Origin: a virus
Lineage: Duplodnaviria; Caudoviricetes
Length of the DNA stretch: 64,000 nucleotides
Direction: 5' to 3' (one strand)
Virus record (IMG/VR): IMGVR_UViG_3300047160_036266
Location: 64,001 to 128,000 of that record
Shown here: piece after piece, positions 35,858 to 62,651 of the stretch
Layout: every line of letters begins with the position of its first letter
Numbering within the stretch: the first letter of the stretch is position 1
Translations under genes and position numbers: made by a program
Notes under the pieces: generated by a model
The model's database searches: none
Told to the model about the DNA's origin: nothing
The model's input: only the letters and a program-made list of their open reading frames with translations

Positions 35858-35952
35858 TGCCCAGGGCGGGACTCGAACCCGCACGGGAGTTACCTCCCAC
35901 GGGATTTTAAGCCGACTTAAATCCCGTGTGTCTACCATTCCACCACCTGGGC
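35858..35952 (-). tRNA. tRNA-Leu(UAA) with 10-nt insertion in anticodon loop
   Basis: GCCCAGG/CCUGGGC acceptor, GGUA D-loop, long variable arm, UUCGAGU T-loop; anticodon loop is 17 nt UUUAAGUCGGCUUAAAA. Confidence 0.9.
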
Positions 35953-36663
35953 TTAGACCTCCCACTCGGCGTCGATGCTGCGGTAAACCCGACCCTTCTT
36001 CACTTTGGGCTGGTCCAGGTCAAAACCCATGTGTTGCTCGATCACGCTTTTCACAGTGGCGGCATCCTCCATCCGTGGAATGGTGGACAGGGTATGGAGG
36101 GATGCCATCCAGAAGTCCCATTCCTTCTTGGTCCCGGCCTTGGAGGGTTCCAAGAAGCCGGACTGGCTGTAATCAGGATATTGAATGCCACCGGGGCCAT
36201 GCTGCATAAAGCGGCGAACCTGGAAATCACGCCCGGTTTTATAGTGGGTCACGTCGCCAAGGGGTTTTTGAATGTGGCCGGACTGGCGCAGGAAGTTCAC
36301 CTGTCCGGCGATGGCGGTAATAATGATGGTGTGCAAGGTCTTGCCCATTGAAAAAACGAGCGGCCCCTTGTCTTGGTTGCGGCGGTCGATGACGTTGTAA
36401 TATATCCGCTCGACCGGCTTGATCTGCTTGGCTTCCTGCTCCCGCTGCTGCCGCCAGAGGGCTGTGAAGAGGGAACAATAGTCGCATTGACCAATCCACT
36501 TGCCATCCTTGAGGGTCATGTGGCAGAAGTGGGTGCCGTTCGCCAGGCGGTGGGTACGGCAGCCGTGGAACAGCTTGCAACCCTGTTTCGGCGGCAGGAT
36601 GCGCAAGTCGAAAGGTTCGATGCCGTTGGGCAGTTGACAGAAGATGTTGTTGAGGTTGCCCAT
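35953..36663 (-). CDS. single-stranded DNA-binding protein, T4 gp32-like
   Basis: CDYC zinc site, RIYYNVIDRR, GPLVFSMGKT, GRDFQV, YPDYSQS. Confidence 0.7.
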   Translation of the reverse strand: MGNLNNIFCQLPNGIEPFDLRILPPKQGCKLFHGCRTHRLANGTHFCHMTLKDGKWIGQCDYCSLFTALWRQQREQEAKQIKPVERIYYNVIDRRNQDKGPLVFSMGKTLHTIIITAIAGQVNFLRQSGHIQKPLGDVTHYKTGRDFQVRRFMQHGPGGIQYPDYSQSGFLEPSKAGTKKEWDFWMASLHTLSTIPRMEDAATVKSVIEQHMGFDLDQPKVKKGRVYRSIDAEWEV

Positions 36664-36813
36664 GAGGGCCTATCCTACCCCGTTTTTTCTAGCAGGTAAA
36701 GGTTGAATACTTCAGGATTTGGCAGTACAATCAGAGTGGAGAGGTTGCGCCTTCCACGGAACAAAGGTACAGTAGCCGACCCTCTATTTCCTTCCTGCCG
36801 GCTATATACCAGC

Positions 36814-37638
36814 ATGGACTTCACCGAATTTCTGCTTGAGGCCAAGTTTGCCAAGATCATGAACGCCCTCCGGGGTGACGTGCCGCACGTCAACCAAATG
36901 GGCATCATGACCGCCCAGAATCCCTTGGGCGTAGAGGCCCCGGCCCAGCAGAACAACGCCGCCAACCGGGAGCTTCTGAAGGAGCTTCGTCGCGCCAACT
37001 TCCGGGGCTACCCGGTGAATCCCCGCTGGATAATGGGTAAGTTTGGAAATATCGAGGACAGCTACTTCATCCCGCATATCGACCGGAATACCCTCATCAC
37101 CTTGGGTGCCCGCTTCGGCCAGCGGTCGGTGATCTGGGGCCAGAAGATGCAGGACGAAGATGGCACCTACATTCGCTTCGAGTATATCGACACCCCGGCA
37201 GAGACATTGCCTCTGGACCCGTCCACCTACCAGACATCGCAAACGAGGGACGTGGTTCTGGCCGGCAAAGAGGCGGCTGAGCGCAGCGATTTGTTCTCGG
37301 CCAAACCCTTTCCCCGCAGCGGCATCGACAAGCGCACCGGCAGGCCGGCGACGGTTCGGAAGTTCGTCATTCCCTTCTTTGATCCCACCTACGAGAAGGC
37401 GAAATTCGCCCCTGACAAGGCCAGTGTCATGAAGCCGGTCGAGGATTCCGTGTCCGCCGAACCCTCGTTCTTATCTTCCGAATTGCCGGACACGCCCGAA
37501 GTCCGGCGGCTGGTCGAGGAGATTCGCAACCGGGAGGGCAGCTTGTATGCCCAGGGTAAGGTGCAACGCTGGTATTGGGAGAGTCGGGGGCTGCTGGAAG
37601 TGTCCCTTCAGAAGCTTCGTGAAGTTCTTAAAGGTTAA
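36814..37638 (+). CDS. hypothetical protein with DUF3293-like domain, probable virion protein
   Basis: N-terminus MDFTEFLLE; IMTAQNP...EDSYFI...FGQRSVIW. Confidence 0.6.
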   Translation: MDFTEFLLEAKFAKIMNALRGDVPHVNQMGIMTAQNPLGVEAPAQQNNAANRELLKELRRANFRGYPVNPRWIMGKFGNIEDSYFIPHIDRNTLITLGARFGQRSVIWGQKMQDEDGTYIRFEYIDTPAETLPLDPSTYQTSQTRDVVLAGKEAAERSDLFSAKPFPRSGIDKRTGRPATVRKFVIPFFDPTYEKAKFAPDKASVMKPVEDSVSAEPSFLSSELPDTPEVRRLVEEIRNREGSLYAQGKVQRWYWESRGLLEVSLQKLREVLKG

Positions 37639-38366
37639 TTGTTGGATGGGTCGAAGGTTTCCTCATCCTCGTCTTCATCCAGGCCCAGGTCTTCCCAGGG
37701 CACCGTTTCCAGTTCCCCGCTCTTGATCTTCTCGGTTGTCTCCTTCATCTCTTCGAGGAAGGCGGCGTTGTCTGCCGGCCCGCCCATGAAGGAAATATCG
37801 TCGTAGATTGCATCCAGCACGTCCAACAAGGTGAAGTCCCGTTCCCCCATGAAGATGAGCTTGGCCTTGCCGTCGCGCATCTTGGGGTCATAGATGCTGA
37901 CTTCCGTATTGAGCTTGACGGGCAGGTTGGCAAGTTCCCACATGGGGGAGTAGGAGACGCTGTAGCAGGTGAAGCCCTGTTCGTTGGGCTTGCCAATGCC
38001 GTGGAAGCCCGCTGACAGGTCGATGCTGTTCTTCTTCTTGTAGTTGTGGGTGCTGGCGTGCCAGTAGATTTCCAGGTGGTCCAGCGGTTCGGGGTCCGGC
38101 TCCATTTTGAGGACCATTTTGCGGGCGTCCTCGTGGAACTCGTCAATGTGCCGGCACCACGCATATTGCGAGATGAAGTCCTTCAGGTCAGGGAGCTTGG
38201 CCACCCCCTCGAAGATGTCCCGCAGCGTCACTCCTTCCTCGATCTCGCAGGAGCAGCGCAGCAGGGTCCAGATGTACCGAGGCCGGCGCTTTACATATTC
38301 ACGCGCGTCTCCGTCCCATTTGTAGGACCAAATGCCGTCCTTCTCGATTTTGGCATGTTCCGACAT
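37635..38366 (-). CDS. hypothetical protein
   Basis: long ORF with acidic tail. Confidence 0.7.
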   Translation of the reverse strand: MSEHAKIEKDGIWSYKWDGDAREYVKRRPRYIWTLLRCSCEIEEGVTLRDIFEGVAKLPDLKDFISQYAWCRHIDEFHEDARKMVLKMEPDPEPLDHLEIYWHASTHNYKKKNSIDLSAGFHGIGKPNEQGFTCYSVSYSPMWELANLPVKLNTEVSIYDPKMRDGKAKLIFMGERDFTLLDVLDAIYDDISFMGGPADNAAFLEEMKETTEKIKSGELETVPWEDLGLDEDEDEETFDPSNN

Positions 38367-38381
38367 AGCAGTTCCTTAATA

Positions 38382-38628
38382 GGTAGCACACTCCCGTAAG
38401 CAGGATTCTGTTCTATGCCATCATTTATCTCACAGGCCGTGGTGGGCCTGCGGCCTTGCGGCTGCACCTACCAGACCCGTTGCCCTGCTCACCGGCTGGG
38501 TCTATTTGGTTTGCACCCTCCGGGGTGGTAGCGATACTGAGCCTTGCGGCTGTTCTCTCCCCCGTTAAGCAGTGGTGTCCTGACTTTCCTCTATCCCTTG
38601 CGGGACAGCGATGGCTCGGAGCGCTACC
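38382..38628 (-). ncRNA. rnpB: RNase P RNA, minimal (reduced S-domain)
   Basis: minus strand: P1 GGUAGC/GCUACC; P2 GCCAUC/GAUGGC; P3 GCAA tetraloop; CR I GAGGAAAGUCAGGA; AAAUAG; CR IV AGAUAAAUGAU; CR V AACAGAAUCCUGCUUA with compensatory P4 pairing CAGGA/UCCUG. Confidence 0.92.
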
Positions 38629-38671
38629 TAGTTAGTGATTGTACCAGGGATTTGGCCGGTTGTAAAGCCCC

Positions 38672-41185
38672 TCAATCTTCTGAGCCGCCGTCCGTTCCTG
38701 GGTCAGCGTCCTCCGATCCGTCGTCGCTCCAGGTCACATCCGGCGAGTTCCAATCCCAATCATCTGCGTTTTGAAGCCGCAATCGACAGACATTTCCAAA
38801 AAGGAGACGCCGGCCAGAGTCGTCATGGGTAATAACCGACTGGCTAGGATTAGCCGTTACCACATAACGGAAACCTGTGGTTTGTTCCCAACAACCTTGC
38901 CTCACGACCTCCTGAATAATGTAGCGACCGGGCCGAACGTAGAATAGCAGATCGCCGTTCCTGTCCGTTTCGCCCACTATCCTGTCATTTGCCAGAATGC
39001 GCCATCCCGCCAGACCTTCCTCGTCAGGGTCCAGTTCCCCATTGCCATTACGGTCGTTGAACTTGTGAACCAGAATGGCCACCTTGATAGGTCCAGGCTC
39101 GGCACTATCATCGCCGCCGCCTCCTCCACTTAAATTTCTTGGCGGGCCAGTTATCACTGGCTCAAAGGGATTGTAGGGCGAAACCACAAAAGGAGGATTC
39201 TGATTGGGCAGATAAGGCAGGAGGGATATAATCGCGTAGAGTATCTTTATCTTTAGCAATGCTCGCAGAATGTCTCCCTCAAGTGCCAAGTCAGGGTTTT
39301 CACCTGGGGGTTTTTCGCCACCGTCTCCTGGGGGCTTACCACCGCCACCGCCACCGCCACCGCCACCGCCACCGCCACCACCACCACCGCCACCATTTTG
39401 GGGAATTACCACGGTTTGTTCGGTGATTCCTCCCTGGTCGTTAGTAGCGTGGTTATTGCTGTCGCCGTTATAGTGAACCGTCCATGTATATTTGCCGGGC
39501 ACCGATCCCAGGGTGAAGCCGATTGGGGTAGCATAGGTTCCATTGCCGTTGACCGTTACCGTCTCAGTGTCCACCGTATTACCGCCCGGCCCCGTCAGGG
39601 TGAAGGTGATTGTGCCAGTGGGCGAAAAACCGCCGGCCAGGATCGCTTTGTCAGTCAGGATGGCCGAGGCCGGCAGGGTCACTGTGTTGGGGCTGGCGTT
39701 CGTAACCAGCGTGGGGCTGTTTGGTGTAATCACTGCTCGCTCCTGTGCAGGATTACTGTCGCTGAGGCTGTTGTTGTTGCCGTCGCCGCTGTAGGTGGCG
39801 ACCCAGAGGTAGGTGCCAGCGCCCGCCCCTGTGAAGCCGATGGGCGTTGTATAAGTGCCATTCCCATTGACCGTGACCATCTCCGTGTCCACAGGCAGGA
39901 TTCCACCGTTGAGGAATAGTCTGAAGGTGATAGTCCCGGTGGGGTCGAATCCCCCGGCCAGGATTGCCTTGTCAGTTAGCACTGGAGCCGGCAAAGGGGC
40001 TGTGGCGGGGCTGGCGGCTGTGAACAAGTTCGGACTGGCCGGTGTAATGACAACCCGCTCCTGGGTGGGATTGTTGTCGATGGTTCCATTATTATTGGGA
40101 TCGCCGCTATAGGTAGCGACCCATTGATAAGTGCCGGCTCCTGTGGCTGCATTCAAGGTGAAACCGACAGGTGTGGTGTAGGTGCCGTTGCCAAGTACCG
40201 CAACCATTTCCGTGTCCACGGGCAGGATGCCGCCGTTGAAGAACAATCTAAAGGTGATGCTGCCGACCTCGAAGAAGCCGCCGCTCAGCGTAGCCGAGTC
40301 CTTCAGCACCGTGGGTGTGTTGCCCAGGGTGACGGCGCTTGGATTGGCGCTGGTGGTCAGTGTCGGATTCGCCGGACTTACGACGGTTTGTTCTGCGGTC
40401 CCTCCTTGGTCGTTGGCGGGACTGTTTGCGCTATCGCCGCTGTAGTGAACTGACCATGTATAGGTGCCGGCCACTGATCCGGTGATGGATATATTGGTGC
40501 TGGCGCTGTAGGTGCCGTTACCGTTGACCGTTTCGGTCTGGGTGGACGAGAAACCGCCTGGGCCGTTCAACGTGAAGACGATGGTGCCTCCAGGGGAGTT
40601 GCCGCCGGACAGCACTGCCGTGTCGCTTAGTGATGCTATGCTCATCCCCAGCGTGATGGCGTTGCTGGCGGTGGTTATGAGCGTGGGTTGGACCACCGCC
40701 AGAACCTTGAAATTGTCCGTCTTGCTGTTGTTATTTTCAAAACCGAAATTGCTGTGAGGATCACCCGGATTATAGTCCGCCACCGGCGTCAGCCACACCT
40801 TGTAATTCCCCCCTGGGTTGGGCGTGGTGCTAAAGGGGAAAAGACCCACCGTTATGCCGCCGAAGACCGAGACGCCGATAGCGTGCGTCGTGCCGAGGTA
40901 AGCGTCGAAAACGCCCGCTGCTGAAACATGGGCCTCACGCTCGGTGATCGGGTCGGTGGAAAGTAGAGTGGAGCCGTTCGGGTCGGTGACTTGAAAAAAA
41001 TAGTCGCCGCTTGGGGTGTTGCCCTGGTTGCTATTGCCGACCCGGATATAAACGTCCGACTTGTTGGCGAAGTTGTTGCCGTTGATCGTTGACCCATCCA
41101 CGGTGGTGGCAAACACATTACCAGCAAAAGAGGGGCAACATCTATCTTCTAACTGCTCAAGCCTTGGGCGGAAGGTATTTCGCAT
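38672..41185 (-). CDS. Planctomycete-type extracellular protein with tandem Ig-like repeats, poly-Gly linker and SdrD-B-like C-terminal domain
   Basis: N-terminal RPRLEQLEDR motif; about four repeats of TDKAILAGGF.PTGTITF.L...VDTE.VTVNGNGTY.TP.GFT...GTY.WVATYSGD.NN; KFNDRNGNGELDPDEEGLAGWRI. Confidence 0.8.
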   Translation of the reverse strand: MRNTFRPRLEQLEDRCCPSFAGNVFATTVDGSTINGNNFANKSDVYIRVGNSNQGNTPSGDYFFQVTDPNGSTLLSTDPITEREAHVSAAGVFDAYLGTTHAIGVSVFGGITVGLFPFSTTPNPGGNYKVWLTPVADYNPGDPHSNFGFENNNSKTDNFKVLAVVQPTLITTASNAITLGMSIASLSDTAVLSGGNSPGGTIVFTLNGPGGFSSTQTETVNGNGTYSASTNISITGSVAGTYTWSVHYSGDSANSPANDQGGTAEQTVVSPANPTLTTSANPSAVTLGNTPTVLKDSATLSGGFFEVGSITFRLFFNGGILPVDTEMVAVLGNGTYTTPVGFTLNAATGAGTYQWVATYSGDPNNNGTIDNNPTQERVVITPASPNLFTAASPATAPLPAPVLTDKAILAGGFDPTGTITFRLFLNGGILPVDTEMVTVNGNGTYTTPIGFTGAGAGTYLWVATYSGDGNNNSLSDSNPAQERAVITPNSPTLVTNASPNTVTLPASAILTDKAILAGGFSPTGTITFTLTGPGGNTVDTETVTVNGNGTYATPIGFTLGSVPGKYTWTVHYNGDSNNHATNDQGGITEQTVVIPQNGGGGGGGGGGGGGGGGGGGKPPGDGGEKPPGENPDLALEGDILRALLKIKILYAIISLLPYLPNQNPPFVVSPYNPFEPVITGPPRNLSGGGGGDDSAEPGPIKVAILVHKFNDRNGNGELDPDEEGLAGWRILANDRIVGETDRNGDLLFYVRPGRYIIQEVVRQGCWEQTTGFRYVVTANPSQSVITHDDSGRRLLFGNVCRLRLQNADDWDWNSPDVTWSDDGSEDADPGTDGGSED
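39340..39395. repeat. (CCA/CCG)n trinucleotide tract encoding poly-glycine
   Basis: accaccgccaccgccaccgcc... run. Confidence 0.9.
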
Positions 41186-41221
41186 ACCATATAAATTGTC
41201 CTCGTGTTGAAATTCTTTTAG

Positions 41222-41305
41222 TGCCCCCGCCAGGACTCGAACCCGGACTCCCGTTACAGGAACTTGGGCCTAAGCCAAGCGCGTCTACCCTTTCGCCACG
41301 GGGGC
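41222..41305 (-). tRNA. tRNA-Leu(UAG)
   Basis: GCCCCCG acceptor, CUUGG-CUUAGGC-CCAAG anticodon arm, long variable arm, GGUUCGAGUCC. Confidence 0.95.
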
Positions 41306-42364: not shown

Positions 42365-42553
42365 GTTTTTCTTTCTCTCGAAACTTCCAGCATTTCTTGC
42401 AGTAATCGTACTGCGGCCAGTTCGGTTCCCCCAGGCCCGCCCAATAGAAGGTGTCCCAGGCGTGGCCAAAGGTAAGGAAACAAACCACCCGCCGCCACAG
42501 CGGCGGGTGGGGAACGAACAGGGGAGGCCAACAATCCCTGGGCCAAAATTCCA

Positions 42554-42949: not shown

Positions 42950-42963
42950 GACTAACCTCCGTG

Positions 42964-44577: not shown

Positions 44578-44828
44578 CGCTGCCACAGGGAGTGATATTT
44601 CTTCTGATGCTGCTGGTGGTCCTGCATCTCGGCCACGTCTGTAGTGTGGTAGCCGCAGTCCACGCAGGTGTACTCCTTCTCCAAGGTAGACCCGTCGATC
44701 ACCGTGCCGTCTTCGATGGGTTCACGGGAGTCGAACAGGAATTCCATCTTGGTGCGGGGCGGGATCGGACCAAGGTTGTGGATTTCAATTTCTGGCACCG
44801 TCAACCCTCCCGACGAATACTCTCCCAT
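44556..44828 (-). CDS. hypothetical protein with C2H2-like motif
   Basis: CVDC...H...H; start uncertain. Confidence 0.45.
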   Translation of the reverse strand: MGEYSSGGLTVPEIEIHNLGPIPPRTKMEFLFDSREPIEDGTVIDGSTLEKEYTCVDCGYHTTDVAEMQDHQQHQKKYHSLWQRWKRYWS

Positions 44829-45361
44829 TGAATATACTGCGGCGGAACCCGATCCGTCAACCAAACGCCGTTCTCCGACTGGAAGAACTTGTAGCCATCT
44901 CGGTGCATGTCTCCCGACCGGACCACCAGGATGATCGGCTTGCCCCGCCGGGAACCGACCTTGATGGCGGTGTCGGTATCGGGTGACAGGTGGACGTGGT
45001 GGCGATCCATCCGCAGCAAACCCTTGGTCTTAATTTCGGCCAGGAAACGATTTACCGTCCCATGATATAGTAGGGCCGGCGGCTCCTTCTCTTCAAGCTG
45101 GAGGTCAACGGGCGTTGAATGGCCCTGGTTGGCTCGGATGAGGGTCTGGGTTGAGTCCAGCGAAAAGCGCTTCTTGTCGTTGAGTTTGACGCACTCCTTG
45201 ATTTCTTCCAGGGTCACAGGGAAGTGCTTCTGGCGGGCACCTTCGATGACTGCGGCGATTGAAACCCACCCGCCGGGCATGAGGGTGAGGCCAAGTTCCT
45301 CCGGCTCGTGGCGAAGGTACTTGGCAAGGAATTTGCTAACACGGATGAGTTGAGGAGTCAT
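44801..45361 (-). CDS. kptA: RNA 2'-phosphotransferase Tpt1/KptA
   Basis: SKFLAKYLRH, KKRF, IRANQGHS, LYHGT, RHHVHLS, NGVWLT. Confidence 0.95.
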   Translation of the reverse strand: MTPQLIRVSKFLAKYLRHEPEELGLTLMPGGWVSIAAVIEGARQKHFPVTLEEIKECVKLNDKKRFSLDSTQTLIRANQGHSTPVDLQLEEKEPPALLYHGTVNRFLAEIKTKGLLRMDRHHVHLSPDTDTAIKVGSRRGKPIILVVRSGDMHRDGYKFFQSENGVWLTDRVPPQYIQWESIRREG

Positions 45362-45954: not shown

Positions 45955-45957
45955 GTC

Positions 45958-46284: not shown

Positions 46285-46285
46285 G

Positions 46286-47464
46286 TCAGCTTCCGTAATG
46301 CACCCGCTCCCCGAAAATATGCGGCACGAAGCGGCTCATATTTTGAGTGATGCGGCTGCCGTCCTCTCGGATGCCAATGCCGCAGGCCCAGCCGTTGACG
46401 ATCCAACTGCCGATGACCGGGAAGTGACCGTCAAAGTTGGGCAACTCCCAAAGCTCTTGATAAATCGCCGGGCCGGTGTACGGCCCTTCGGTTTCCTCCA
46501 CCTTGACCCCATGCTCGAACACGGCGATGTTGGCCCCCTCACGGGCCAGGATCGGCTTTTTCACATAATCGTTGATGCCGTGAATCTCCATGTCGGTGGC
46601 GTCGAAATATGCCGCCAACAGGTAGGTGTTGTTGGGATACAGTTCCCAGAGCGTTGGAAGCAAGGCTTTATTGCTGAGCAGCGACTTCCAGGGCGGCTCC
46701 CACCACTTGGTCCGGGCGCTGCGCAAGTAGGGACCGAACTGCTCGCGCATCAGCCATTCCCAAGGGTAGAGCTTGAAGATTTGTTTGATCTCCCGCTCCT
46801 GCAAGTCCGTGAAGATGCCGCTGGCATTGTTCCAGCCCACGTCGTCAATGTCCAGGTACTCTACTCCGGCGATGGGGCCAAACCCGGCCTGCACCGCCAC
46901 GTCCTTGAGATACTGGACGGTCATGTAGTCTTCCAGGTGGCCCTTGAGCGCCGCAAAATAAAAGCGCTCGTCACCGACCTCCTTATAGATGGTCTGGAAG
47001 ACTTCCATGAGGCGGTCGTGGATGCTGTTGAACTGGTCGCCCGCCGGGTGGACCGCCTTCAGCCAGTGCCACTGAATGACAGAGGCTTCCAGCAGGGCGG
47101 TCGGCGTGTCGGCGTTATACTCAAACAGCATGGGGTCTTTGCCGGGCTGGAAGCAGAAATCGAACCGCCCGTAAATACTGTGTTCGTCCTCCTCCCAGGA
47201 GCGGATGATATATTCCTCGTAGCCCGGCGGAATTTGAAAACGCTCAAAGAGGTTGTTGTCGATGACGTGCTGGACGACCGCCAGGCACATCTCGTTGAGG
47301 GCGTAGGTGGCCTTCTCGATCTGGTCAATTTCCTGGCGGGTGAACTCGTAGTACGCCGACTCGTTCCAGTACGGCGTACCGTCTTCGGACGTGTGAAAAT
47401 ACAAGCCCTGCTCTTCGACAATCTTTTGCCAGTTCTCACGAGGCTGTATTTCCACCCGTTTCAT
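46286..47464 (-). CDS. glutathionylspermidine synthase family ATP-grasp protein (YgiC/YjfC-like)
   Basis: YWNESAYY, GRFDF, EYNADTPT, QFNSIH, EPPWK, KKPILAREGANI, IGSW, RFVPH. Confidence 0.92.
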   Translation of the reverse strand: MKRVEIQPRENWQKIVEEQGLYFHTSEDGTPYWNESAYYEFTRQEIDQIEKATYALNEMCLAVVQHVIDNNLFERFQIPPGYEEYIIRSWEEDEHSIYGRFDFCFQPGKDPMLFEYNADTPTALLEASVIQWHWLKAVHPAGDQFNSIHDRLMEVFQTIYKEVGDERFYFAALKGHLEDYMTVQYLKDVAVQAGFGPIAGVEYLDIDDVGWNNASGIFTDLQEREIKQIFKLYPWEWLMREQFGPYLRSARTKWWEPPWKSLLSNKALLPTLWELYPNNTYLLAAYFDATDMEIHGINDYVKKPILAREGANIAVFEHGVKVEETEGPYTGPAIYQELWELPNFDGHFPVIGSWIVNGWACGIGIREDGSRITQNMSRFVPHIFGERVHYGS

Positions 47465-47793: not shown

Positions 47794-47796
47794 GGT

Positions 47797-48273: not shown

Positions 48274-48277
48274 GGTC

Positions 48278-48826: not shown

Positions 48827-48866
48827 TTTTGGCACTCCTTTGTTTTTGGGGCGAGTACGCCGGGAA

Positions 48867-50150
48867 TTATACCGGCTTCCTGTCGGGCTGTAAAGCGATT
48901 CCGGGCGCGAAGCAGCGCAGCATGGGTAGCAGGGCTTCGACCGTCTGGGCGGAAGGTTTCTGCCCCTTATTCTTGTTGTAAAACTCCATGAGGGTCGAGA
49001 CAACCTTGTTGACCTTCCAACTACGCATGTAGTGATGGAGATTGGCGTGCAGGTCGGTGAGGTCGATGTCGTCTTGTCCCGGTTCGGCCAGCCAGCGGCG
49101 CAGTCGGCCCAGGAACCGGCGGATACCCGTAATGGCCTTATCATCCCAATCGCCGCCGTCCTGGTATGGCCCCAGGAACATGAGGTAGAGGCGCAGTTCA
49201 TCCGGGTCGTAGGCGTCCGGGTTGACGGCGTTGCCCTTGCTCTTCCCCATCTTGGCCCCGCCCGCCGTAATCATACCCTGGTGGATCACCTGTTTGAACG
49301 GTTCCTCCTCTTGCACGATCCCCTGGTCGTAGAGGAACATATTGATGAAGCGGGCGTAAATCAGGTGCATACAGGCGTGTTCCGGCCCGCCTACATACAG
49401 GTCCACTTGCTGATATTTCTCCGGGTGCAGGAACGTGTCCGAATCGTTTTCAAGATACCGGAGGAAATAAAAGCTGGAATCCACGAAGGTGTCCAGCGTG
49501 TCGGTTTCGCCCTCGACGGGGATCGGACAGCCCCAGCGGCGCTGGCGGGAAACGCACCAGTCGTGCAGGTTCTCCAGCCAGGCCCGCTGCTGGTTGAGGG
49601 TGCCGATGGGGTAGTCGATCTTGTCCAGGTTGGCGATCAGGCGGTCCTTGTAAGCCGTGGTGCGGAAGAACCACTGGTTGAGCGACCGCTGTTCAATCTT
49701 GGCCTGGCAGCGCTCGCAAAAGCCGCCGCCACACTGCTCTTTGGCCAGTACGGTGTCGCAGGACGGGCAGTAGTTGACGGGACCGAAGGCTTTGTAGGCC
49801 AGGCCGTTCTCGCGCAGCAGGGTAAAGAGCCATTGCGTCCATTTGATGTAGGATGGGTCGCACGTCACCAGTTTTTCCTGGTACACCGTGTTCATGTGTC
49901 GCATCTGGCCCCGGAAGCGTTCGATGTTGGCCCAGGTAACGGTGGCCGGGTCGCCGCCGATGGAACGGGCGTAGTTCTCGGCGGGCAGGCCGAAAGCGTC
50001 GTAGCCAAAGGGCTGGAAGACCTCGATGCCCAGGTAGCGCAGCCACCGGCAGTACGAGTCCACGATGGCGTAGTTGTAGTAGTGCCCCAGGTGCAGGCCG
50101 GCACCGGAGGGATACGGGAACATGACGCAGCAGTAGAATGGCTTGCTCAT
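48867..50150 (-). CDS. leuS: minimal leucyl-tRNA synthetase (427 aa; no CP1, no LS domain, no C-terminal domain)
   Basis: MFPYPSGAGLHLGH, GYDAFGLPAEN, QWFF, DWCVSRQRRWGCPIP, DTLDTFVDSSFYFLRY, YVGGPEHACMHLIYARF, KMGKSKGN. Confidence 0.95.
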   Translation of the reverse strand: MSKPFYCCVMFPYPSGAGLHLGHYYNYAIVDSYCRWLRYLGIEVFQPFGYDAFGLPAENYARSIGGDPATVTWANIERFRGQMRHMNTVYQEKLVTCDPSYIKWTQWLFTLLRENGLAYKAFGPVNYCPSCDTVLAKEQCGGGFCERCQAKIEQRSLNQWFFRTTAYKDRLIANLDKIDYPIGTLNQQRAWLENLHDWCVSRQRRWGCPIPVEGETDTLDTFVDSSFYFLRYLENDSDTFLHPEKYQQVDLYVGGPEHACMHLIYARFINMFLYDQGIVQEEEPFKQVIHQGMITAGGAKMGKSKGNAVNPDAYDPDELRLYLMFLGPYQDGGDWDDKAITGIRRFLGRLRRWLAEPGQDDIDLTDLHANLHHYMRSWKVNKVVSTLMEFYNKNKGQKPSAQTVEALLPMLRCFAPGIALQPDRKPV

Positions 50151-50323
50151 GACCTATGGTACTGTGGGATCGTCGGGTTGTTTAGTACGATTGGGCCACC
50201 ATGTCCGCATGTTGGCTTCTGCCGCCTCCTTGGGATAGCGCAGAAATAGGAAAATAAGAAACTCCCGGCGGACACCTTCCGGGAGTTGGTCGATCTTATC
50301 GAGAATGATCTTTTCGTCTTCGC

Positions 50324-51741: not shown

Positions 51742-51978
51742 TCATTTGCGCCAGGACTTCCAAAATCCGTCGTCCCAATAGGGTTGAAAGCTGGGGCAAC
51801 CGCAGAACGACGTATAATGTGATCCACAGCTTGCGCAATTATACTCGACCCCGCCGGAAAAGTCACCCGTCTTTTGCCACGGGTGGCCCCGCCAGCGGCA
51901 GAGCAATTTTCTTAGCGCCTTCACGGCCTTTTCCCGGAGTCGGGTCAGCAACGTGACCATAACACGCTCTCCCTTCAT
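51742..51978 (-). CDS. hypothetical protein with Zn-ribbon
   Basis: C..RGH.W...CASC. Confidence 0.45.
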   Translation of the reverse strand: MKGERVMVTLLTRLREKAVKALRKLLCRWRGHPWQKTGDFSGGVEYNCASCGSHYTSFCGCPSFQPYWDDGFWKSWRK

Positions 51979-52291
51979 GTCCTTCGGGGAGGTATTCGGT
52001 GATGGGCAGACCTTCGGGCGTAACGAACAGCAGGCAGTGGCAGTATTTCCAATTTTTCATTTCATCGCAAGCGCAGTTCCACTCCCGGCTGCGTTCGACC
52101 TGGGCCTTTTTCCCTTCCGGGTAGAAGTTACAAGGACACAAGGGCCGACCCACTTCATCCAAGTTGAGGGCCAGCCCTTGTATGACAGACTCAGTGACTT
52201 CGGGGTTCGGGTGTTTGGTGGTCCCGGTCTTCTCCCAATAAGTCTGGACGTACCTCTCGATCTTCCGCTTGGTTTCCGGCTTCGGTTCCAT
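51863..52291 (-). CDS. ferredoxin-thioredoxin reductase catalytic subunit
   Basis: GRPLCPC, CAC, YCHCLLF 4Fe-4S/disulfide motifs. Confidence 0.88.
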   Translation of the reverse strand: MEPKPETKRKIERYVQTYWEKTGTTKHPNPEVTESVIQGLALNLDEVGRPLCPCNFYPEGKKAQVERSREWNCACDEMKNWKYCHCLLFVTPEGLPITEYLPEGHEGRACYGHVADPTPGKGREGAKKIALPLAGPPVAKDG

Positions 52292-52292
52292 C

Positions 52293-52673
52293 TTATTTTT
52301 TGATCTCCTCAATGAAGTCAATCGCCATGCGCACCTTGGCCGCTCCGATCCGCTCGATCAGGTCCAGCGTGTCCTTGAGGCAAATCAGGGAGGAGGCCGT
52401 GTGGGGCTGCTTGAGATAGTCCGCCACCTTCTGCACGTCCTGCATGGTCAGTTCCAGCTTGTCGTTCTCCCGGACGCCGACCGGCAGGCCCATCCTGCGG
52501 CGAAGAGCGGCCCGCTCGGTCCAGAACATGGACGCTTCGCAGCCATTGGTGATGCCGTAGCGCCCGAAATAGGTGTCCACCTGCTGCCGAGTCGCCTCCG
52601 GCCCCAGCTTTTCAAGGGCCTCCTGGGCGATCTGCTGCCTCGTCTTGCCTTTGTACAGTTGCGGCTTGCCCAT
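52293..52673 (-). CDS. hypothetical protein
   Basis: GGAG RBS; co-directional. Confidence 0.6.
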   Translation of the reverse strand: MGKPQLYKGKTRQQIAQEALEKLGPEATRQQVDTYFGRYGITNGCEASMFWTERAALRRRMGLPVGVRENDKLELTMQDVQKVADYLKQPHTASSLICLKDTLDLIERIGAAKVRMAIDFIEEIKK

Positions 52674-53442
52674 CTGAAATCTCCTTCGGGTGTGTGGTGA
52701 GGATTCTGCAACCTTTGTCAGTCACGAGAACCGTATGCTCGTACTGTGCGCTTAAAGCCCCATCCTGGGTGCGGGCCGTCCATTGGTCAACTTCGTCAAT
52801 CACGGCTTCGGCCACGCCGAGATTTATCATTGGCTCGATGGTGAATATCATGCCTGGGCGCAGGCGTGGTCCCTCGCCCCTGACCGTGTTGTTATACGTC
52901 ACCTGTGGCTCTTCATGAAACTGAATGCCAACGCCATGCCCGCAGAACTGGTGGACCACGCTACAACCCTGCGACCGGGCGTACTTGTTAATTTCAAAAC
53001 CGATGTTGCCAAGCCTTTGGCCCGGCCACACGTTGGCAATGCCGATGTTCATGCACTTGTGGGCGACCGCCATGATTTTCTTGGCGTCATCCGAGACTTC
53101 ACCCACGGCAAACATATAGCTAGTGTCGCCGTAGTAGCCGCCGAGGATTGTGGTCACGTCGATGTTGACAATATCGCCGCCTTTGAGAATCTGCCCGCCA
53201 GGAATGCCGTGGCAAATGACCTCGTTGACGGAGATGCAAGTGGCCCTGGGGAAGCCGCAATAACCCTTGGGGGCTGGAAGGGCGGCGTGGTCGTAGATGA
53301 ATTTTTCAATTTGCAAATCCAGTTCGGAAGTCGTCACGCCGGCCCTTACGAATGGACGGATATATTCCAGGCATTCGCCGGCCAGCTTGCAACTCTGCTC
53401 AATGCCGACCACCTGCCGGGGAGTTTTGATAATGATGCCCAT
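52612..53442 (-). CDS. map: methionine aminopeptidase (type I)
   Basis: CISVNEVICHGIP, DIVNIDVT, GDTS, CGHGVG, HEEP, FTIEPM, SAQYEHT. Confidence 0.96.
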   Translation of the reverse strand: MGIIIKTPRQVVGIEQSCKLAGECLEYIRPFVRAGVTTSELDLQIEKFIYDHAALPAPKGYCGFPRATCISVNEVICHGIPGGQILKGGDIVNIDVTTILGGYYGDTSYMFAVGEVSDDAKKIMAVAHKCMNIGIANVWPGQRLGNIGFEINKYARSQGCSVVHQFCGHGVGIQFHEEPQVTYNNTVRGEGPRLRPGMIFTIEPMINLGVAEAVIDEVDQWTARTQDGALSAQYEHTVLVTDKGCRILTTHPKEISDGQAATVQRQDEAADRPGGP

Positions 53443-53527
53443 GCTTGTATTATAATGCACCAGCATCTCAAGCCCACGGTAGCGTTTGAAAAAGCCCGGC
53501 GGGAGGGTCGGCCCGCCGGGCTACGGG

Positions 53528-53806
53528 TCATGCGATCTGGATTTGCGTCTTCTGGTGCTGGGTGTCGAGGATGGTGATGCGACACTTGTTCGTGATGAGC
53601 AGGTCGAGCTTGTTCAATCTCTCCCGCACGTCCTGGCCGGTCGGACACAAGGGATGATAGAAGACTTCATCATCCGTTGTCATCCAGCCGTCATCCTTCA
53701 GTTTGTCGATCACCTTCTGGAACTTTTTGAGCGTTTTGGCGACGGTCTTCTTGGCTTCAGGCTCCACCTGAACACCGGGCAGGTCTTTCCTTTCCTCTTC
53801 AGCCAT
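53528..53806 (-). CDS. hypothetical protein
   Basis: co-directional ORF. Confidence 0.55.
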   Translation of the reverse strand: MAEEERKDLPGVQVEPEAKKTVAKTLKKFQKVIDKLKDDGWMTTDDEVFYHPLCPTGQDVRERLNKLDLLITNKCRITILDTQHQKTQIQIA

Positions 53807-53957
53807 CAGTAGCCCTCTCTCACAAAGACTCGGTTATTGCCCAGCCTCCTTCCCTGTCTTTTTCAGATGCTACTGAAGAAACTTGTGGTTGTAAAGCACA
53901 CAAATGGAGGCGGCGCGACTTGCACGCGCAAGCAACTCCAGCCTTTCGGTTTAGGAA

Positions 53958-54395
53958 TTACTCAGCCTTCTCGCCCCCCGTCCTTTTCGCTTCCCAGAGC
54001 CTCCGTGTCTCCTCCCGGCACGCCTTGCAGTGGGTCTTGATCCAGTTGGTTGGCGTGGGCAGGGGTTCGGCTTCCTCTGTGCTGCCGCATCGTTCGCACA
54101 CCTTCGCAGAGTCCTCCTCTGCCTTGTGGATCAGGTCGTAGATGGACTGGTTTCCACCACTACCGTATATACGCAGCGTCCCGAACTTCTCCTTGATCTG
54201 GAGGAACTTGAAGTCCACGCTGCTGTCCTTGGCCGACTCCTCTCGGATTTTGTCGCACAGCAAGAACAGGATCGGGAACCAGCCCTTCTCGACGCAAACG
54301 CCGAAAGCCATACAGGTTACGCGAGGATCACCGCCGTGGTCCCGGAAGAAGGTCGGGAACTCTTCCACCAGTTTCTTTTCCCATTCTTCGGTCAT
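53958..54395 (-). CDS. hypothetical protein
   Basis: QIKEKFGTLRIY and CERCG, a pattern common in phage hypotheticals. Confidence 0.65.
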   Translation of the reverse strand: MTEEWEKKLVEEFPTFFRDHGGDPRVTCMAFGVCVEKGWFPILFLLCDKIREESAKDSSVDFKFLQIKEKFGTLRIYGSGGNQSIYDLIHKAEEDSAKVCERCGSTEEAEPLPTPTNWIKTHCKACREETRRLWEAKRTGGEKAE

Positions 54396-54405
54396 GCTGT
54401 TCTCC

Positions 54406-55179
54406 TTATCGACAGGCGAAGAGGCGGGCAGGCTGAAGTTTCACTTTTTGGCCGTTGCCGTACCTCCGCACCTTCCCTTTCTCACAAATTACCATCTGTC
54501 CCCTGCCCATGACTTGGACGGTGTTATCTATTATGATGATCGCCGTTGCCTCGTCAATGCCTATCCCCATAAGGTTGGGGTGCTTACTCAAAAGGTTGAG
54601 CAAGCGGTTAAGACGTTTTCGGTTGGTGAAATGCTGGTCCACAATGGGGTCCACGAGGCCCAGACCCACTGCTTCGGTATCTTCGTACACCATCACCTTG
54701 CTGACGATGGAAGCGCCGGCGGACGTGCCTCCGATCACCCCGCCCCGACGATACAGGTTCTTTAATTCCTCCTCAACCCTGGTGCCGCCGTAGCGTTCGG
54801 CAAGGATCGCCTGGTCGCCGCCGGAAAACCAAACGCCGGTGGCTTTTTGCAAAACACCGGCGAGTTTATTCGATTGGAGGCGGTTGGGAGCGTGGAGTAC
54901 CTGGATCGAGGCCACCTTCTCCGTGGCCCAATAACGCAGGATCGTTCGTTCTATATTCGGTTCCCGACAGGCGGTGGGGATTAAGACGATCCGTGCCTGT
55001 TCACCGCCTGCCAGCACGATGAACTGCTGTCTTATTTCTGGTAAGGTTGTCCCACCACCGACCAGGACGAAGGAACCGTAATGGACGGGCGAGGATTCAA
55101 TATGGGGTGCCTGCAATTGACAAGGGATGCAGGCAAAAAGGGCGAAGCAGAGGAGCAAGAAAATGCAGTAGCGTAACAT
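54406..55179 (-). CDS. cyanophycinase-like peptidase (S51), signal-peptide bearing
   Basis: LVGGG, VLIPTA, GVWFSGGDQ, GGTSAGA nucleophile, IVDQHF, GIDEATA. Confidence 0.88.
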   Translation of the reverse strand: MLRYCIFLLLCFALFACIPCQLQAPHIESSPVHYGSFVLVGGGTTLPEIRQQFIVLAGGEQARIVLIPTACREPNIERTILRYWATEKVASIQVLHAPNRLQSNKLAGVLQKATGVWFSGGDQAILAERYGGTRVEEELKNLYRRGGVIGGTSAGASIVSKVMVYEDTEAVGLGLVDPIVDQHFTNRKRLNRLLNLLSKHPNLMGIGIDEATAIIIIDNTVQVMGRGQMVICEKGKVRRYGNGQKVKLQPARLFACR

Positions 55180-55218
55180 ACTTCCGTGTAATTAGTTGTA
55201 CATATCCATATTTCAGCG

Positions 55219-55590
55219 TTATTTCTTCGGAATTTGCCCTCGATGAGTTTGGTGAAAGAGCTTCACGGCAGCCGTGGCGGCTTCCCGCTTACTCATCCCC
55301 GGAGGGTCTTCTTCCGTCCCGCCATGACAGTGACAGCGTTTCATCTGGTGCCCCACGGAACCGACCACGCTGCGAACGAAGCAGTCGATGTGCCAGGGGT
55401 GACTTTCGAGCCGGGGCAGCTTCTTGAGAAAGTCCTCGATATTGAAGCCGAACAGGCCGTCGATCATGACCCCCTGATCGCCCTCCGCAATCGGCTCGTC
55501 GCAATGGGCGCAGAGGACACCCACCGGCGTGTCCACATGCTCGCCCTGACAAACAGATGCGCCCCAACTCTCGCCAAACCACTTGGTCAT
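55219..55590 (-). CDS. hypothetical protein
   Basis: CAHCDEPI...WHIDC. Confidence 0.55.
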   Translation of the reverse strand: MTKWFGESWGASVCQGEHVDTPVGVLCAHCDEPIAEGDQGVMIDGLFGFNIEDFLKKLPRLESHPWHIDCFVRSVVGSVGHQMKRCHCHGGTEEDPPGMSKREAATAAVKLFHQTHRGQIPKK

Positions 55591-55750
55591 TGGCTCCTCC
55601 AGGCCAGGTAAAGGTTGACCGCCAGCCATATTAACAGGCCCAGGACGAAGGAGCCAAACAGGAGGTTCCCTGTCTTGATGTACCCTTTATTATGGAGCCG
55701 GGCGGTGGCATAACCAACGCCCAGCCCCAGGATCAGGAAAATGGTGCCGG

Positions 55751-56101
55751 TCATATCGCCTCGCGCCGTCCGTATTTGGTGAAGTTGCCTCGTGTGTAGC
55801 CGCAGCCATGCAAGGCGTACTCGATCACCAGCCGCAGCGACTTCCAGTATTCCAGCGGGAACGCCCCGCCGTAACGGTGGTTCAGCCGGGCGATGCGATT
55901 CTTGCCCTCGCCCTCGACCAGCAGGAACCAGTCGTTGCCACCCAAGTCCCAGGAGTCGCTGCCGCCGCCTTTCTGATAGGGAATGCCTTCCGACTTCAGG
56001 CCCCAGACGAGCATGGACAGCCGCTCGGCCAACTCCTTCTCGTCCCAGGTGCCGATTTCAAAATGAATCTCGCCAACGCTGTCGTCGTCAAGCGTCAACA
56101 T
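55751..56101 (-). CDS. hypothetical protein
   Basis: co-directional ORF. Confidence 0.55.
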   Translation of the reverse strand: MLTLDDDSVGEIHFEIGTWDEKELAERLSMLVWGLKSEGIPYQKGGGSDSWDLGGNDWFLLVEGEGKNRIARLNHRYGGAFPLEYWKSLRLVIEYALHGCGYTRGNFTKYGRREAI

Positions 56102-56537
56102 GGATGAACTCCTTGAGGATGCGGATTCCGTTCCATGTCTGTTCCTGTTCTTTCCGTTTGGACTCTTCGATCTGTTCGGCTGTCACCCAGGGGGCGTAAC
56201 AGGCGATGTAGAAGGTCCGGGGCCACTTGGTCTGGTCGTCACCGGGGTGGTTGGCGAGCATCCTTTTTATTTCCGCCATCAGGTCGGGCGGACACAAGCG
56301 GATGAACTCCTCCATCTCATCCCGAATGGCGAGCCGGCAGACGTAGTTCCCAAACTCAGTCTTGGTAATGTCGCCCCGGTTGTAAACATCGACAGCGTGG
56401 ATCATGTGCGGTTTGGCACGCTTCGGACGGGACGCTTCCAGGTCTTTCCACCACTGGATTTGCTCCTCCCGGCTCAGCGCGTCCCACTCCTCTGGCGAAA
56501 TCTCATTGGGACGCCAGATCAGTCGTTCCTTGGTCAT
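56088..56537 (-). CDS. hypothetical protein
   Basis: GGAG RBS before ATG 56537. Confidence 0.55.
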   Translation of the reverse strand: MTKERLIWRPNEISPEEWDALSREEQIQWWKDLEASRPKRAKPHMIHAVDVYNRGDITKTEFGNYVCRLAIRDEMEEFIRLCPPDLMAEIKRMLANHPGDDQTKWPRTFYIACYAPWVTAEQIEESKRKEQEQTWNGIRILKEFIHVDA

Positions 56538-57213
56538 CGCAGCACTCCTTGGAGAGTTTGCCAGAGCCGCAAAGGCATTGCTCGTCTGGTTTTGCGTCGT
56601 TCCAGGCGTCCTCGTCCCAATCCGCCACGTCGATCTGGTGCCGTTCGGTCGGCCCGATCCACAGGTGGACGCCTTTCTTGCCGTCGTTGACGTGCATCCA
56701 CATTGTACACGCATCCATCCGCTCCATGTGGAGAATGCACTTGCCCTGGAATTTGAAAAACAGTTCATCGAAGATGCCGTCGTCGCCGGCCCAGCCCTCG
56801 CAGATGGTCCACGGGCCGCAGAGGTAATCGTGGTCGCCGTCCTTCTCCAACTTCGCTTTGCGGGCCTGCATGATCTCGGCGTAGGTGAACTTGGCGTCTA
56901 CCATCGCCTGTTCTTCTTGGGTCCATTCCTCTTCGATGTCCCAAACGACGCCGGAGGGAGTGACATCGAGGGGGCGGAAGTGAATGACAAGGCGGCGCAG
57001 GGTTCCCGGCTCGTAGAGCGCCATCCAGATAACGTGGTCATCCAGGCGTTCCAGGTGGATGAGGCATTCGTCGTTCTTGCACAGGACCACTTCATCCAGG
57101 TCTTCGTCGTCCTGCGGCTCAAAGCGCAGTTCAATCTCCCCGATCCACTCCTGGCGGTAGCGGTGGGTGCGGCCTCCGACTTGGTATTCGTGGTAGTGGT
57201 AGTTGGTATTCAC
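56503..57213 (-). CDS. hypothetical protein with SEC-C-like C-terminus
   Basis: CLCGSGKLSKECC. Confidence 0.6.
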   Translation of the reverse strand: MNTNYHYHEYQVGGRTHRYRQEWIGEIELRFEPQDDEDLDEVVLCKNDECLIHLERLDDHVIWMALYEPGTLRRLVIHFRPLDVTPSGVVWDIEEEWTQEEQAMVDAKFTYAEIMQARKAKLEKDGDHDYLCGPWTICEGWAGDDGIFDELFFKFQGKCILHMERMDACTMWMHVNDGKKGVHLWIGPTERHQIDVADWDEDAWNDAKPDEQCLCGSGKLSKECCDDQGTTDLASQ

Positions 57214-57484
57214 GGCAGTAGCTCTCGAAGGTGGCGATGCCGAAGTGTTCCAGAAACCTCGTGAAGTATTGGCTGCGGTCCCGCCCTTCACGGGCCTGGT
57301 GCTTCTCTAGTTGATAGCATACTTCCAGAAGGTAACTTTGGAAAGTACGAAACCCCCGACCTCGCAGCGTTGATTTCACCACGAAGGTCGGGTAAAAGTC
57401 GCACGCTCGTGCGAGATCAGGGGTGATGAAATCCTTGATGGCGACGGGTAGCTCGATGTCATCCACCAGGATTTGAGTTGACAT
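57131..57484 (-). CDS. hypothetical protein
   Basis: ORF overlapping neighbours; uncertain. Confidence 0.4.
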   Translation of the reverse strand: MSTQILVDDIELPVAIKDFITPDLARACDFYPTFVVKSTLRGRGFRTFQSYLLEVCYQLEKHQAREGRDRSQYFTRFLEHFGIATFESYCREYQLPLPRIPSRRPHPPLPPGVDRGD

Positions 57485-57753
57485 TAGTAGACTCGCACAC
57501 GCTTGTAGCGGTAACAAAGCTTCTCAATGTAACCCGTCACGACGCCGTAGCAGTCGTAAACCGGAACTGTCCTGTAGTAAGGCACGCGAATCCGCTTGTA
57601 CCGAACCCGGTAGGCGCTGTAGCCATATCCGTGGACATGACGATAACTATGCCGGTGGTGGCGGTGGTGCTTGTAGTGAGCCGCTTCTGCCGTGCCTGTG
57701 CCGCCCACAAGGGAAGCCAGACCTACAACGGCGGAAAGCAGTAACGCTTTCAT
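57484..57753 (-). CDS. small secreted His/Tyr-rich protein
   Basis: AGGAGG RBS; signal peptide ...TAEAA. Confidence 0.65.
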   Translation of the reverse strand: MKALLLSAVVGLASLVGGTGTAEAAHYKHHRHHRHSYRHVHGYGYSAYRVRYKRIRVPYYRTVPVYDCYGVVTGYIEKLCYRYKRVRVY

Positions 57754-57823
57754 GCGTTCCTCCTAACTCTAGGGTATGAACCTACTTATATAGGAGGAAT
57801 GACAACTAATTTAGTGAACATTC

Positions 57824-58003
57824 CTAACGTGGTGCAAATAATAGGATTACGAACCCCAGGATCAGGAATACCAGTGCGATCCAGCCGGTGGTTTGTTGAG
57901 CTTCGGGCGAGTCCCAGCGGCGTCCTGCGTTATTGAGGAACAGCAATAACGCGCCAAAGGCTACGAGAATCCATCCAAGTACGAACACGATGAAAGCCTC
58001 CAT
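57824..58003 (-). CDS. small two-TM membrane protein
   Basis: hydrophobic helices; directly downstream of tRNA-Leu(CAA). Confidence 0.55.
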   Translation of the reverse strand: MEAFIVFVLGWILVAFGALLLFLNNAGRRWDSPEAQQTTGWIALVFLILGFVILLFAPR

Positions 58004-58015
58004 TCTTTTTGGGAG

Positions 58016-58099
58016 TGCCAGGGGAGGGAGTCGAACCCTCACGGGATTTCTCCCACCAGATTTTGAGTCTGGCGTGGCTGCCGATTACACCACCCTGGC
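58016..58099 (-). tRNA. tRNA-Leu(CAA)
   Basis: GCCAGGG acceptor, CCAGA-CUCAAAA-UCUGG, long variable arm, GGUUCGACUCC. Confidence 0.95.
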
Positions 58100-58302
58100 T
58101 AATTGGCCGACATCTTGCCGATGCCGTTACCCTGATGTGCCATTATAAGGACGGCTTCCTCACGAGAGAAACCTTCCGCCATCATAGCGTCGAGGGTTTT
58201 CTTATAGAGGCGGGCAGCGATTTTGAAAATCTCTTCCTGCTTTTCCGCCGCTTCCATCATATATTTGACGGCCTCAAACATCTCGTCTATTTGCTCGATC
58301 AT
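58099..58302 (-). CDS. hypothetical protein
   Basis: GGAGG RBS between two tRNAs. Confidence 0.55.
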   Translation of the reverse strand: MIEQIDEMFEAVKYMMEAAEKQEEIFKIAARLYKKTLDAMMAEGFSREEAVLIMAHQGNGIGKMSAN

Positions 58303-58316
58303 GGGAACCTCCAAAG

Positions 58317-58400
58317 TGTCCAGGGCGGGAGTCGAACCCGCACGCCCTTTCGGGCACCAGCCCCTCAAGCTGGCGTGGCTACCAGTTACACCACCTGGAC
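58317..58400 (-). tRNA. tRNA-Leu(GAG)
   Basis: GUCCAGG acceptor, CCAGC-UUGAGGG-GCUGG, long variable arm, GGUUCGACUCC. Confidence 0.95.
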
Positions 58401-58612
58401 AGGGGCGGCGGTTGTTACCTCTTGCCAGATCAACATTCTCGGCACGGGGGCCATTGAGAAGGTCATCTAAGCACCAGGGCCACGCTCCGTGTCAAAAGAC
58501 GACTCGGCGTTTACCTGGCTCTGGCAGACGACTTCCCCTTCCGCCGCCCGGTCGTCTACTCGATGGTATCGAAGACGCGCAATAGTCGGGGAAGAGGCCA
58601 AGACAGAGGCAG

Positions 58613-58695
58613 TGCCCAGGGTGGGAGTTGAACCCACACGCCCTTACGGGCACACGGCCCTGAACCGTGCGTGGCTGCCATTACACCACCTGGGC
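58613..58695 (-). tRNA. tRNA-Leu(CAG)
   Basis: GCCCAGG acceptor, CACGG-UUCAGGG-CCGUG, long variable arm, GGUUCAACUCC. Confidence 0.95.
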
Positions 58696-62649: not shown

Positions 62650-62651
62650 AG

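Follow-up and report, generated by a model that had tools for sequence, protein, structure and literature searches.

Five leucine tRNA genes within a class II tRNA island common to a clade of T4-like huge soil phages

Here we report an analysis of the leucine tRNA genes of a T4-like huge soil phage (Duplodnaviria; Caudoviricetes), based on a window of 64,000 nt that comprises bases 64001-128000 of IMG/VR record IMGVR_UViG_3300047160_036266. The window carries five class II tRNA-Leu genes (84-95 nt, all on the minus strand) with the anticodons UAA, UAG, CAA, GAG and CAG. We lean towards the view that these genes encode working elongator tRNAs and belong to a conserved island of class II (long-variable-arm) tRNA genes that a clade of T4-like huge soil phages has in common. 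The full record has 343,421 bp, is labelled 'provirus' and is about 69% complete (CheckV); its major capsid protein is of the gp23 type and shares 82% identity with that of LR756511.1, a 595-kb uncultured phage from a 2020 study.

The tRNA genes were called with ARAGORN and the Rfam model RF00005 (cut-off 29 bits). Relatives were chosen mainly by their capsid protein, which yielded seven genomes with the island (G009, G011, G012, G013, G014, G015 and LR756511.1). Two of them are complete (G011, 532,729 bp, with a capsid protein 90% identical to that of the studied phage, and LR756511.1, 595 kb), and four partial relatives comprise 223-341 kb. The closest relative, G006, is collinear with the studied phage at 70-80% nucleotide identity. 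A choice of relatives based on leucyl-tRNA synthetase (LeuRS) gave mostly unrelated phages and was dropped in favor of the capsid-based set, and searches with the radical SAM, gp32-like and ValRS proteins recovered no relatives. The distant huge phage G005 (62 tRNAs), which has only 22 open reading frames (ORFs) in common with the studied phage, was treated as weak evidence.

ARAGORN and Rfam agree on all five tRNA-Leu genes, which score 46.6-54.6 bits with RF00005 and have a cloverleaf with a 7-bp acceptor stem, GG in the D loop, a GTTCRA T loop and a variable stem-loop of about 13-15 nt. The discriminator is A73 in each of the five and in all 34 related genes aligned; in Escherichia coli, this base is the main identity element for LeuRS. 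None of the five encodes CCA. The UAG, CAA, GAG and CAG genes have a 7-nt anticodon loop with U33 and a free leucine anticodon, but the UAA gene does not. The tRNA-Leu(UAA) gene (35858..35952), which contains a 10-nt insert, directly abuts with its 5' end the TAA stop of a gp32-like gene, and the tRNA-Leu(UAG) gene (41221..41305; 52 bits; 92-95% identity to the syntenic gene of G006) directly abuts the TAA stop of a RecD-like helicase gene. The genes for tRNA-Leu(CAA) (58015..58099; 54.6 bits), tRNA-Leu(GAG) (58316..58400; 49.2 bits; 81% identity with the phage's own CAG gene) and tRNA-Leu(CAG) (58612..58695; 46.6 bits) form a single 680-bp cluster. The CAG gene starts 12 nt past the stop of a radical SAM gene; the TAG stop of a 67-codon ORF (58100..58302, minus strand) ends on G1 of the CAA gene, so that this ORF, which lies between the GAG and CAA genes, overlaps the next tRNA with its stop codon. 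An earlier note on this DNA had described five canonical tRNA-Leu genes scattered singly between genes. All five class II genes were recovered, although the insert makes the UAA gene non-canonical, and scattering applies to the UAA and UAG genes but not to the clustered other three. No leader peptide rich in Leu, Ser or Tyr is present ahead of the canonical Leu genes. The spacer between the CAG and GAG genes (58401-58611, minus strand, 211 nt) contains no convincing ORF and has an inverted repeat (gacgac...gtcgtc).

The ten RNAs with a leucine anticodon counted by the earlier note were all found: the five class II genes are accompanied by a second set of five armless 75-nt tRNAs (CAA, UAG, GAG, CAG and UAA; 62651..63829, minus strand). 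Leucine is the only amino acid with such a doubled set. Both sets have A73, and some of their acceptor stems are identical (GCCCAGG/CCTGGGC), which argues against the suggestion that the canonical set corrects mistranslation by the second one. Next to the armless set lies a degenerate Tyr-like (GUA) class II RNA (63834..63921, minus strand); the islands of the relatives have regular tRNA-Tyr genes. That there is almost no other tRNA holds within the window, but three Phe(GAA) and three Ser genes (UGA, GGA, GCU) begin 48 nt past its end. The full 343-kb record contains 10 Leu, 3 Phe, 3 Ser and 1 Tyr-like tRNA genes plus a tmRNA gene, so that Leu accounts for 10 of 17 tRNAs (P ~4e-6 against chance) in a record that is only about 69% complete. 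The impression of a leucine-only set is mostly due to the window edge and the incomplete record.

The same island is present in all seven relatives, with every leucine anticodon, Ser, Tyr and usually Phe. In G011 it is located at 473-497 kb and consists of five class II Leu, two armless Leu and four Ser tRNAs, one Tyr, one Phe and a 91-nt CUA tRNA. The islands of the partial genomes comprise Leu x7, Phe x2, Ser x4 and Tyr (G012), Leu x7, Ser x3, Phe x2 and Tyr (G013), Leu x7, Tyr x3, Ser x4 and Phe x2 (G014), and Leu x11, Ser x5 and Tyr x3 (G015), and G009 has a similar restricted block. LR756511.1 has 60 tRNA hits, among them a cluster at 428-437 kb that is limited to Leu (all five anticodons), Tyr x2 and Ser x4, and an array of 71-76-nt hits at 176-291 kb that were taken as class I by their length. 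The separate class I arrays of the complete relatives comprise about 40-48 tRNAs; that of G011 (about 40 tRNAs at 0-55 kb) contains complete sets of isoacceptors for Pro, Arg (six), Gly, Ala, Val and Thr, which is what the earlier note had named as evidence against a leucine bias. All 10 Leu, Ser and Tyr tRNAs of G011 are among the 14 island genes in a total of 56 (P = 2.8e-8), and island and class I array are at least 140 kb apart in the two complete records as assembled. The island, with clustered tRNA genes on the same strand, is syntenic with those of G006 and G011, and armless Leu copies occur in the studied phage, G011, G012, G013 and G015. The separation of class II from class I tRNAs was not seen in the distant G005. 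Ser and Tyr sets are common to the relatives' islands, and the conserved unit is therefore 'all long-armed tRNAs' and not 'leucine'.

An alignment of the 34 class II Leu orthologs and paralogs revealed many compensatory changes in the stems, with the D loop, the T loop and A73 fixed, a pattern which argues that the tRNA bodies are under purifying selection. For half of the 34 genes, the nearest neighbor in another genome has the same anticodon, which indicates that the Leu set is old. Within genomes, the GAG and CAG genes share 81-89% identity, and this likeness suggests that repeated switches of the anticodon, or gene conversion, have kept the Leu set complete. Leucine codons have an ordinary share of 8.8% of all codons, and all six are used (CTG 34%, CTC 22%, TTG 19%, CTT 16%, CTA 5% and TTA 5% of the Leu codons). 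The earlier note had proposed selection specifically on leucine decoding; this ordinary usage and the islands, whose Ser sets are equally complete and which also hold Tyr, speak against it.

The 5' ends of the tRNA-Leu genes lie 0 (UAA), 0 (UAG), -1 (CAA) and 12 nt (CAG) from the upstream stop codon. Across six genomes, 42 of 130 tRNAs start between -2 and +7 nt from the stop codon of an ORF that lies on the same strand and has 50 codons or more, compared with 3.9% for shifted control positions (P = 4e-27). A tRNA that starts at a stop codon implies co-transcription with the upstream gene and cleavage by RNase P right after the stop. No recurrent promoter motif was found. In the literature, we found no paper that describes phage tRNA genes abutting upstream stops.

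The 10 extra nucleotides of tRNA-Leu(UAA) (35912-35921) are inserted between positions 31 and 32, and led ARAGORN to call the anticodon 'aag'. The anticodon arm folds as a 12-bp hairpin with one bulged A and a UCGG cap, and 17 nt lie between the strands of the anticodon stem. The ortholog of G006 is located at the same place and has an intact body (GGCCGAG...CTCGGCT, A73) with a 13-nt insert at the same site. Both inserts start with UU(U)AAG, which is complementary to C32-U33-U34-A35-A36, and differ in their loops (UCGG in the studied phage, CCAGGCAA in G006); the insert would thus supply the tRNA with an internal UUA codon to which its own anticodon pairs. Compensatory differences between the acceptor and anticodon stems of the two orthologs indicate that the gene is maintained. 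The orthologs of G011, G012, G014 and G015 are free of an insert, so that the insert shows an intron-type pattern of presence and absence among orthologs with an intact tRNA body. No removal route or cutting geometry is evident for the insert, and as transcribed, tRNA-Leu(UAA) is predicted to be unable to decode; the armless UAA tRNA (63755-63829) may cover UUA.

A scan for the insert motif recovered no tRNA other than that of G006. A pattern scan for the 3' half of tRNA-Leu(UAA) in viral contigs (L170-L249) gave 36 of 80 matches that lack the 5' half. Their reading as introns was rejected: they contain neither an Rfam tRNA nor a group I intron, and most have one upstream sequence in common. 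These lone 3' halves probably represent attP-type tRNA fragments from temperate phages whose integration site is tRNA-Leu(UAA). Other tRNAs of the relatives are lengthened to 85-123 nt by inserts in the anticodon arm (G011 13184-13278, 25615-25716, 4872-4970, 89409-89493 and 498893-499001; G015 84483-84605; G013 194598-194720). They include a Lys(CUU) tRNA whose insert has an AAG able to pair with the anticodon, and a Phe(GAA) tRNA with 17 nt between the stem strands.

Several genes related to tRNA metabolism accompany the tRNA-Leu genes. A reduced RNase P RNA of about 250 nt (38379..38627, minus strand; 65.9 bits, E = 4e-18) is encoded between the UAA and UAG genes, and such a mini RNase P RNA lies in or near the island in three genomes (the studied phage, G006 and, beside the island, G011). 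The minus strand also encodes a LeuRS of 427 aa (48867..50150), which lacks the CP1 editing domain and the Leu-specific and C-terminal domains, a truncated ValRS-like class Ia synthetase (34311..35804) directly downstream of tRNA-Leu(UAA), and a MetRS (7663..9333). The idea that the Leu set is the cognate partner of the phage mini-LeuRS is weakened by G011, which keeps five tRNA-Leu genes and in which no LeuRS ortholog was found; the set is therefore independent of the phage enzyme. A Tpt1/KptA RNA 2'-phosphotransferase of the tRNA repair or splicing type (44801..45361, minus strand; E = 2e-51) is also present in G006 and was not found in G011. Outside the window, the record encodes two PF09414 RNA ligases (genome positions 329762-330481, plus strand, and 193210-194466, minus strand) and two nucleotidyltransferases of the PolyA_pol/CCA-adding type (56135-57361 and 324305-326071, both plus strand); the latter fit with the lack of encoded CCA in the tRNA genes. 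Searches for RtcB and for an Rnl1-type ligase found neither, the Rnl1 search having been made with no positive control. Together, Tpt1 and the two RNA ligases resemble a toolkit of the tRNA repair or splicing type. Further minus-strand genes of the island encode a glutathionylspermidine synthase (46286-47464), a protein similar to the beta subunit of ferredoxin-thioredoxin reductase (51863-52321), a methionine aminopeptidase (M24; 52612-53466) and an S51 peptidase (54406-55179).

Some additional features were observed in G011. Three tRNAs with a CUA anticodon (amber suppressor type), a kind that is absent from the studied record, are encoded at 121393-121540 and 491736-491826; one of them, which is 91 nt long and class II-shaped, lies inside the island and adjoins an armless Leu(GAG) gene. 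A 119-nt match to positions 1083-1154 of the bacterial 23S rRNA model (484,001-484,119, minus strand; L161:4001-4119; 38.8 bits, E = 3e-8) adjoins the island gene for tRNA-Leu(GAG) and is possibly an rRNA-fragment mimic. Inside the class I array, a module of a tRNA, a gp32-like gene and a class I synthetase gene (36195-39794) is paralogous to the arrangement of gp32-like gene, tRNA-Leu(UAA) and ValRS in the window.

In the mechanism that we propose, the clade would encode a nearly complete decoding set (56-60 tRNA genes), with the long-variable-arm tRNAs in one island that also houses genes for synthetases, RNase P RNA and RNA repair, and the class I tRNAs in a separate array. The island tRNAs would be transcribed along with upstream genes, as suggested by the many tRNAs that start at or a few bases from a stop codon. 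They would be freed by RNase P, possibly with the help of the phage mini RNase P RNA, and then be trimmed and provided with CCA by a host or phage nucleotidyltransferase. The tRNA-Leu species would be charged by the LeuRS of the host and possibly also by the phage mini-LeuRS. All six leucine codons would stay readable during infection, and the set would be a general back-up of the tRNA pool, not a leucine-specific device.

Several points weigh against this reading. It leaves the separation of the class II tRNAs without an explanation, and apart from the Phe genes there is no class I tRNA in the 343 kb of the studied record. Four other partial relatives (223-341 kb) likewise have no class I tRNA, with two exceptions: G015 has Glu(UUC), and a gene of 90 nt in G014 was called as Ile(UAU). 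The record's left end is truncated, and a metagenome contig with 99.9% identity over the first 1062 bases extends it by 2.25 kb (L355:1063-3317); in the 2-6 kb past this end that are seen in contigs (about 6 kb in a relative, L354:11673-17568) there are zero tRNAs. Genes that border the array in G011 at 44.7-56 kb (MetRS and a few ORFs) are found at 71.6-73.3 and 87.8-92.2 kb of the record with no adjacent tRNAs, and the array may therefore be truly absent here. We nevertheless consider it somewhat more likely than not that the studied phage has a class I array. Both complete genomes carry one, and it could be located in the missing 31%. In the synteny with G011, positions 135-339 kb of the record correspond to 445 to 250 kb of G011 in reverse order, 96-132 kb to the island region at 452-500 kb (inverted relative to its flanks) and 66-87 kb to 528 to 502 kb, and the array-bearing 0-250 kb of G011 has almost no counterpart in the record. 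The L354 relative, which is 82-88% identical to the studied phage, encodes a peptide deformylase, an indoleamine 2,3-dioxygenase (IDO)-like protein and PspA past the left end.

A general role in tRNA supply or in conflicts over tRNAs is plausible; Tpt1/KptA and the two RNA ligases make such a conflict plausible in general, and its context has been described elsewhere (PMC10264068, PMC11555353, PMC11726456). The classical explanation of phage tRNAs, discussed in PMC10264068, is that they supplement codons used more by the phage (here 56% GC) than by its host. The use of all six Leu codons, including TTG (19%), CTT (16%), TTA (5%) and CTA (5%), agrees with it, but the CAG and GAG tRNAs read CTG and CTC, which are already the top Leu codons of the phage (56% together), and selective supplementation does not predict complete isoacceptor sets, which makes this explanation improbable. 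We regard it as very unlikely that host tRNA-Leu is destroyed or withheld and that the phage replaces all five isoacceptors; the earlier note had suggested such a replacement after destruction by a host or phage nuclease. T4 is known to cleave a host tRNA-Leu. The ten Leu-anticodon genes, the only doubled set, and the phage LeuRS would fit such a replacement, as would the resistance to a T4-like cyanophage that is conferred by a low level of host tRNA-Leu(UAA) (PMC11726456). However, the Ser set is as complete in the studied phage and its relatives, whose islands also have regular tRNA-Tyr genes, the complete G011 covers every other amino acid and holds the Leu set without a LeuRS, and the UAA gene, which would matter most, bears the masking insert. 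No finding points exclusively to leucine.

Another possibility is a conflict directed at class II tRNAs. A nuclease of host defense or of phage shut-off would recognize tRNAs with a long variable arm, the phage would replace them, and the armless Leu tRNAs would be escape variants. We know of no prokaryotic nuclease that is specific for class II tRNAs, and the characterized bacterial Schlafen acts on tRNAs such as Lys, Met and Ala, none of them class II. Human SLFN11 is cited in PMC13056530 as cleaving type II tRNAs, and phage tRNAs can rescue infection from tRNA-cutting defenses (PMC10264068, PMC11555353). The strict separation of class II and class I arrays in two complete genomes and the armless Leu duplicates in five genomes (the studied phage, G011, G012, G013 and G015) are in line with such a conflict, as are the RNA ligases and Tpt1/KptA; KptA in jumbo phages has been interpreted as tRNA repair (PMC9503650). 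On the other hand, Phe belongs to class I and yet usually lies in the island, armless versions of Ser or Tyr tRNAs were not observed, and the separation could reflect duplication within the class, given the 81-89% identity of the GAG/CAG pairs. We judge this conflict unlikely as an explanation of the five genes. Its extended form, in which the island is kept because a host- or phage-encoded nuclease targets class II tRNAs, the armless Leu tRNAs and the self-masked UAA tRNA are nuclease-proof, and the mini RNase P RNA, the ligases and Tpt1 process or repair them, appears quite unlikely.

With the five genes taken as elongator tRNAs of a class II island, the leucine bias would be the visible edge of a clade-wide layout that keeps long-armed tRNAs apart. 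We consider three features to be new: the strict split between class II and class I tRNAs, tRNA genes that abut upstream stops, and a self-masked tRNA-Leu(UAA). The layout, the stop-welded genes and the tRNA-Leu that hides its anticodon are clues to how giant phages express, process and protect their decoding system, and also bear on the question of bacteria or phages targeting tRNAs according to their shape class.

Huge phages can encode as many as 67 tRNAs and 15 synthetases (Al-Shayeb et al. 2020, PMC7162821), and the terminal repeats of Xanthomonas phage XacN1 carry 56 tRNAs, which cover all 20 amino acids (PMC5852040). The relatives studied here (56-60 tRNAs) resemble these sets and the T4 cluster in their many tRNAs and synthetases and in their genes for tRNA repair or modification. 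They differ in that the class II tRNAs form their own island, lie among protein genes and in many cases begin at the preceding stop, a layout of which we found no description in the literature. Phage tRNAs that evade nucleases, such as those of T5 against retron and PARIS effectors (PMC11555353) and mycobacteriophage tRNAs (PMC10264068), likewise duplicate host isoacceptors in genomes with RNA-repair genes, but here the sets are complete and not limited to single target tRNAs; this likeness, drawn from the phage genes alone, is a lead. Inserts in phage tRNAs have been described without an explanation (PMC6784885): the 'enigmatic' tRNA introns of Lak megaphages (Devoto et al. 2019, PMC6784885) also lie in the anticodon loop, are kept between related phages and are missing in other orthologs. 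The further tRNA inserts of our relatives have about 10-50 nt, as judged by tRNA length, whereas that of tRNA-Leu(UAA) differs from the Lak introns in having only 10-13 nt, a codon-like UU(U)AAG with a small loop and no evident removal route. The stop-abutting genes are reminiscent of mitochondrial tRNA punctuation, where tRNA genes also directly flank coding sequences, so that cleavage by RNase P would define the ends of mRNAs. In the phages, by comparison, the arrangement, known from sequence alone, occurs in a genome with ordinary intergenic regions elsewhere, and only the upstream junction, at the stop codon, is tight.

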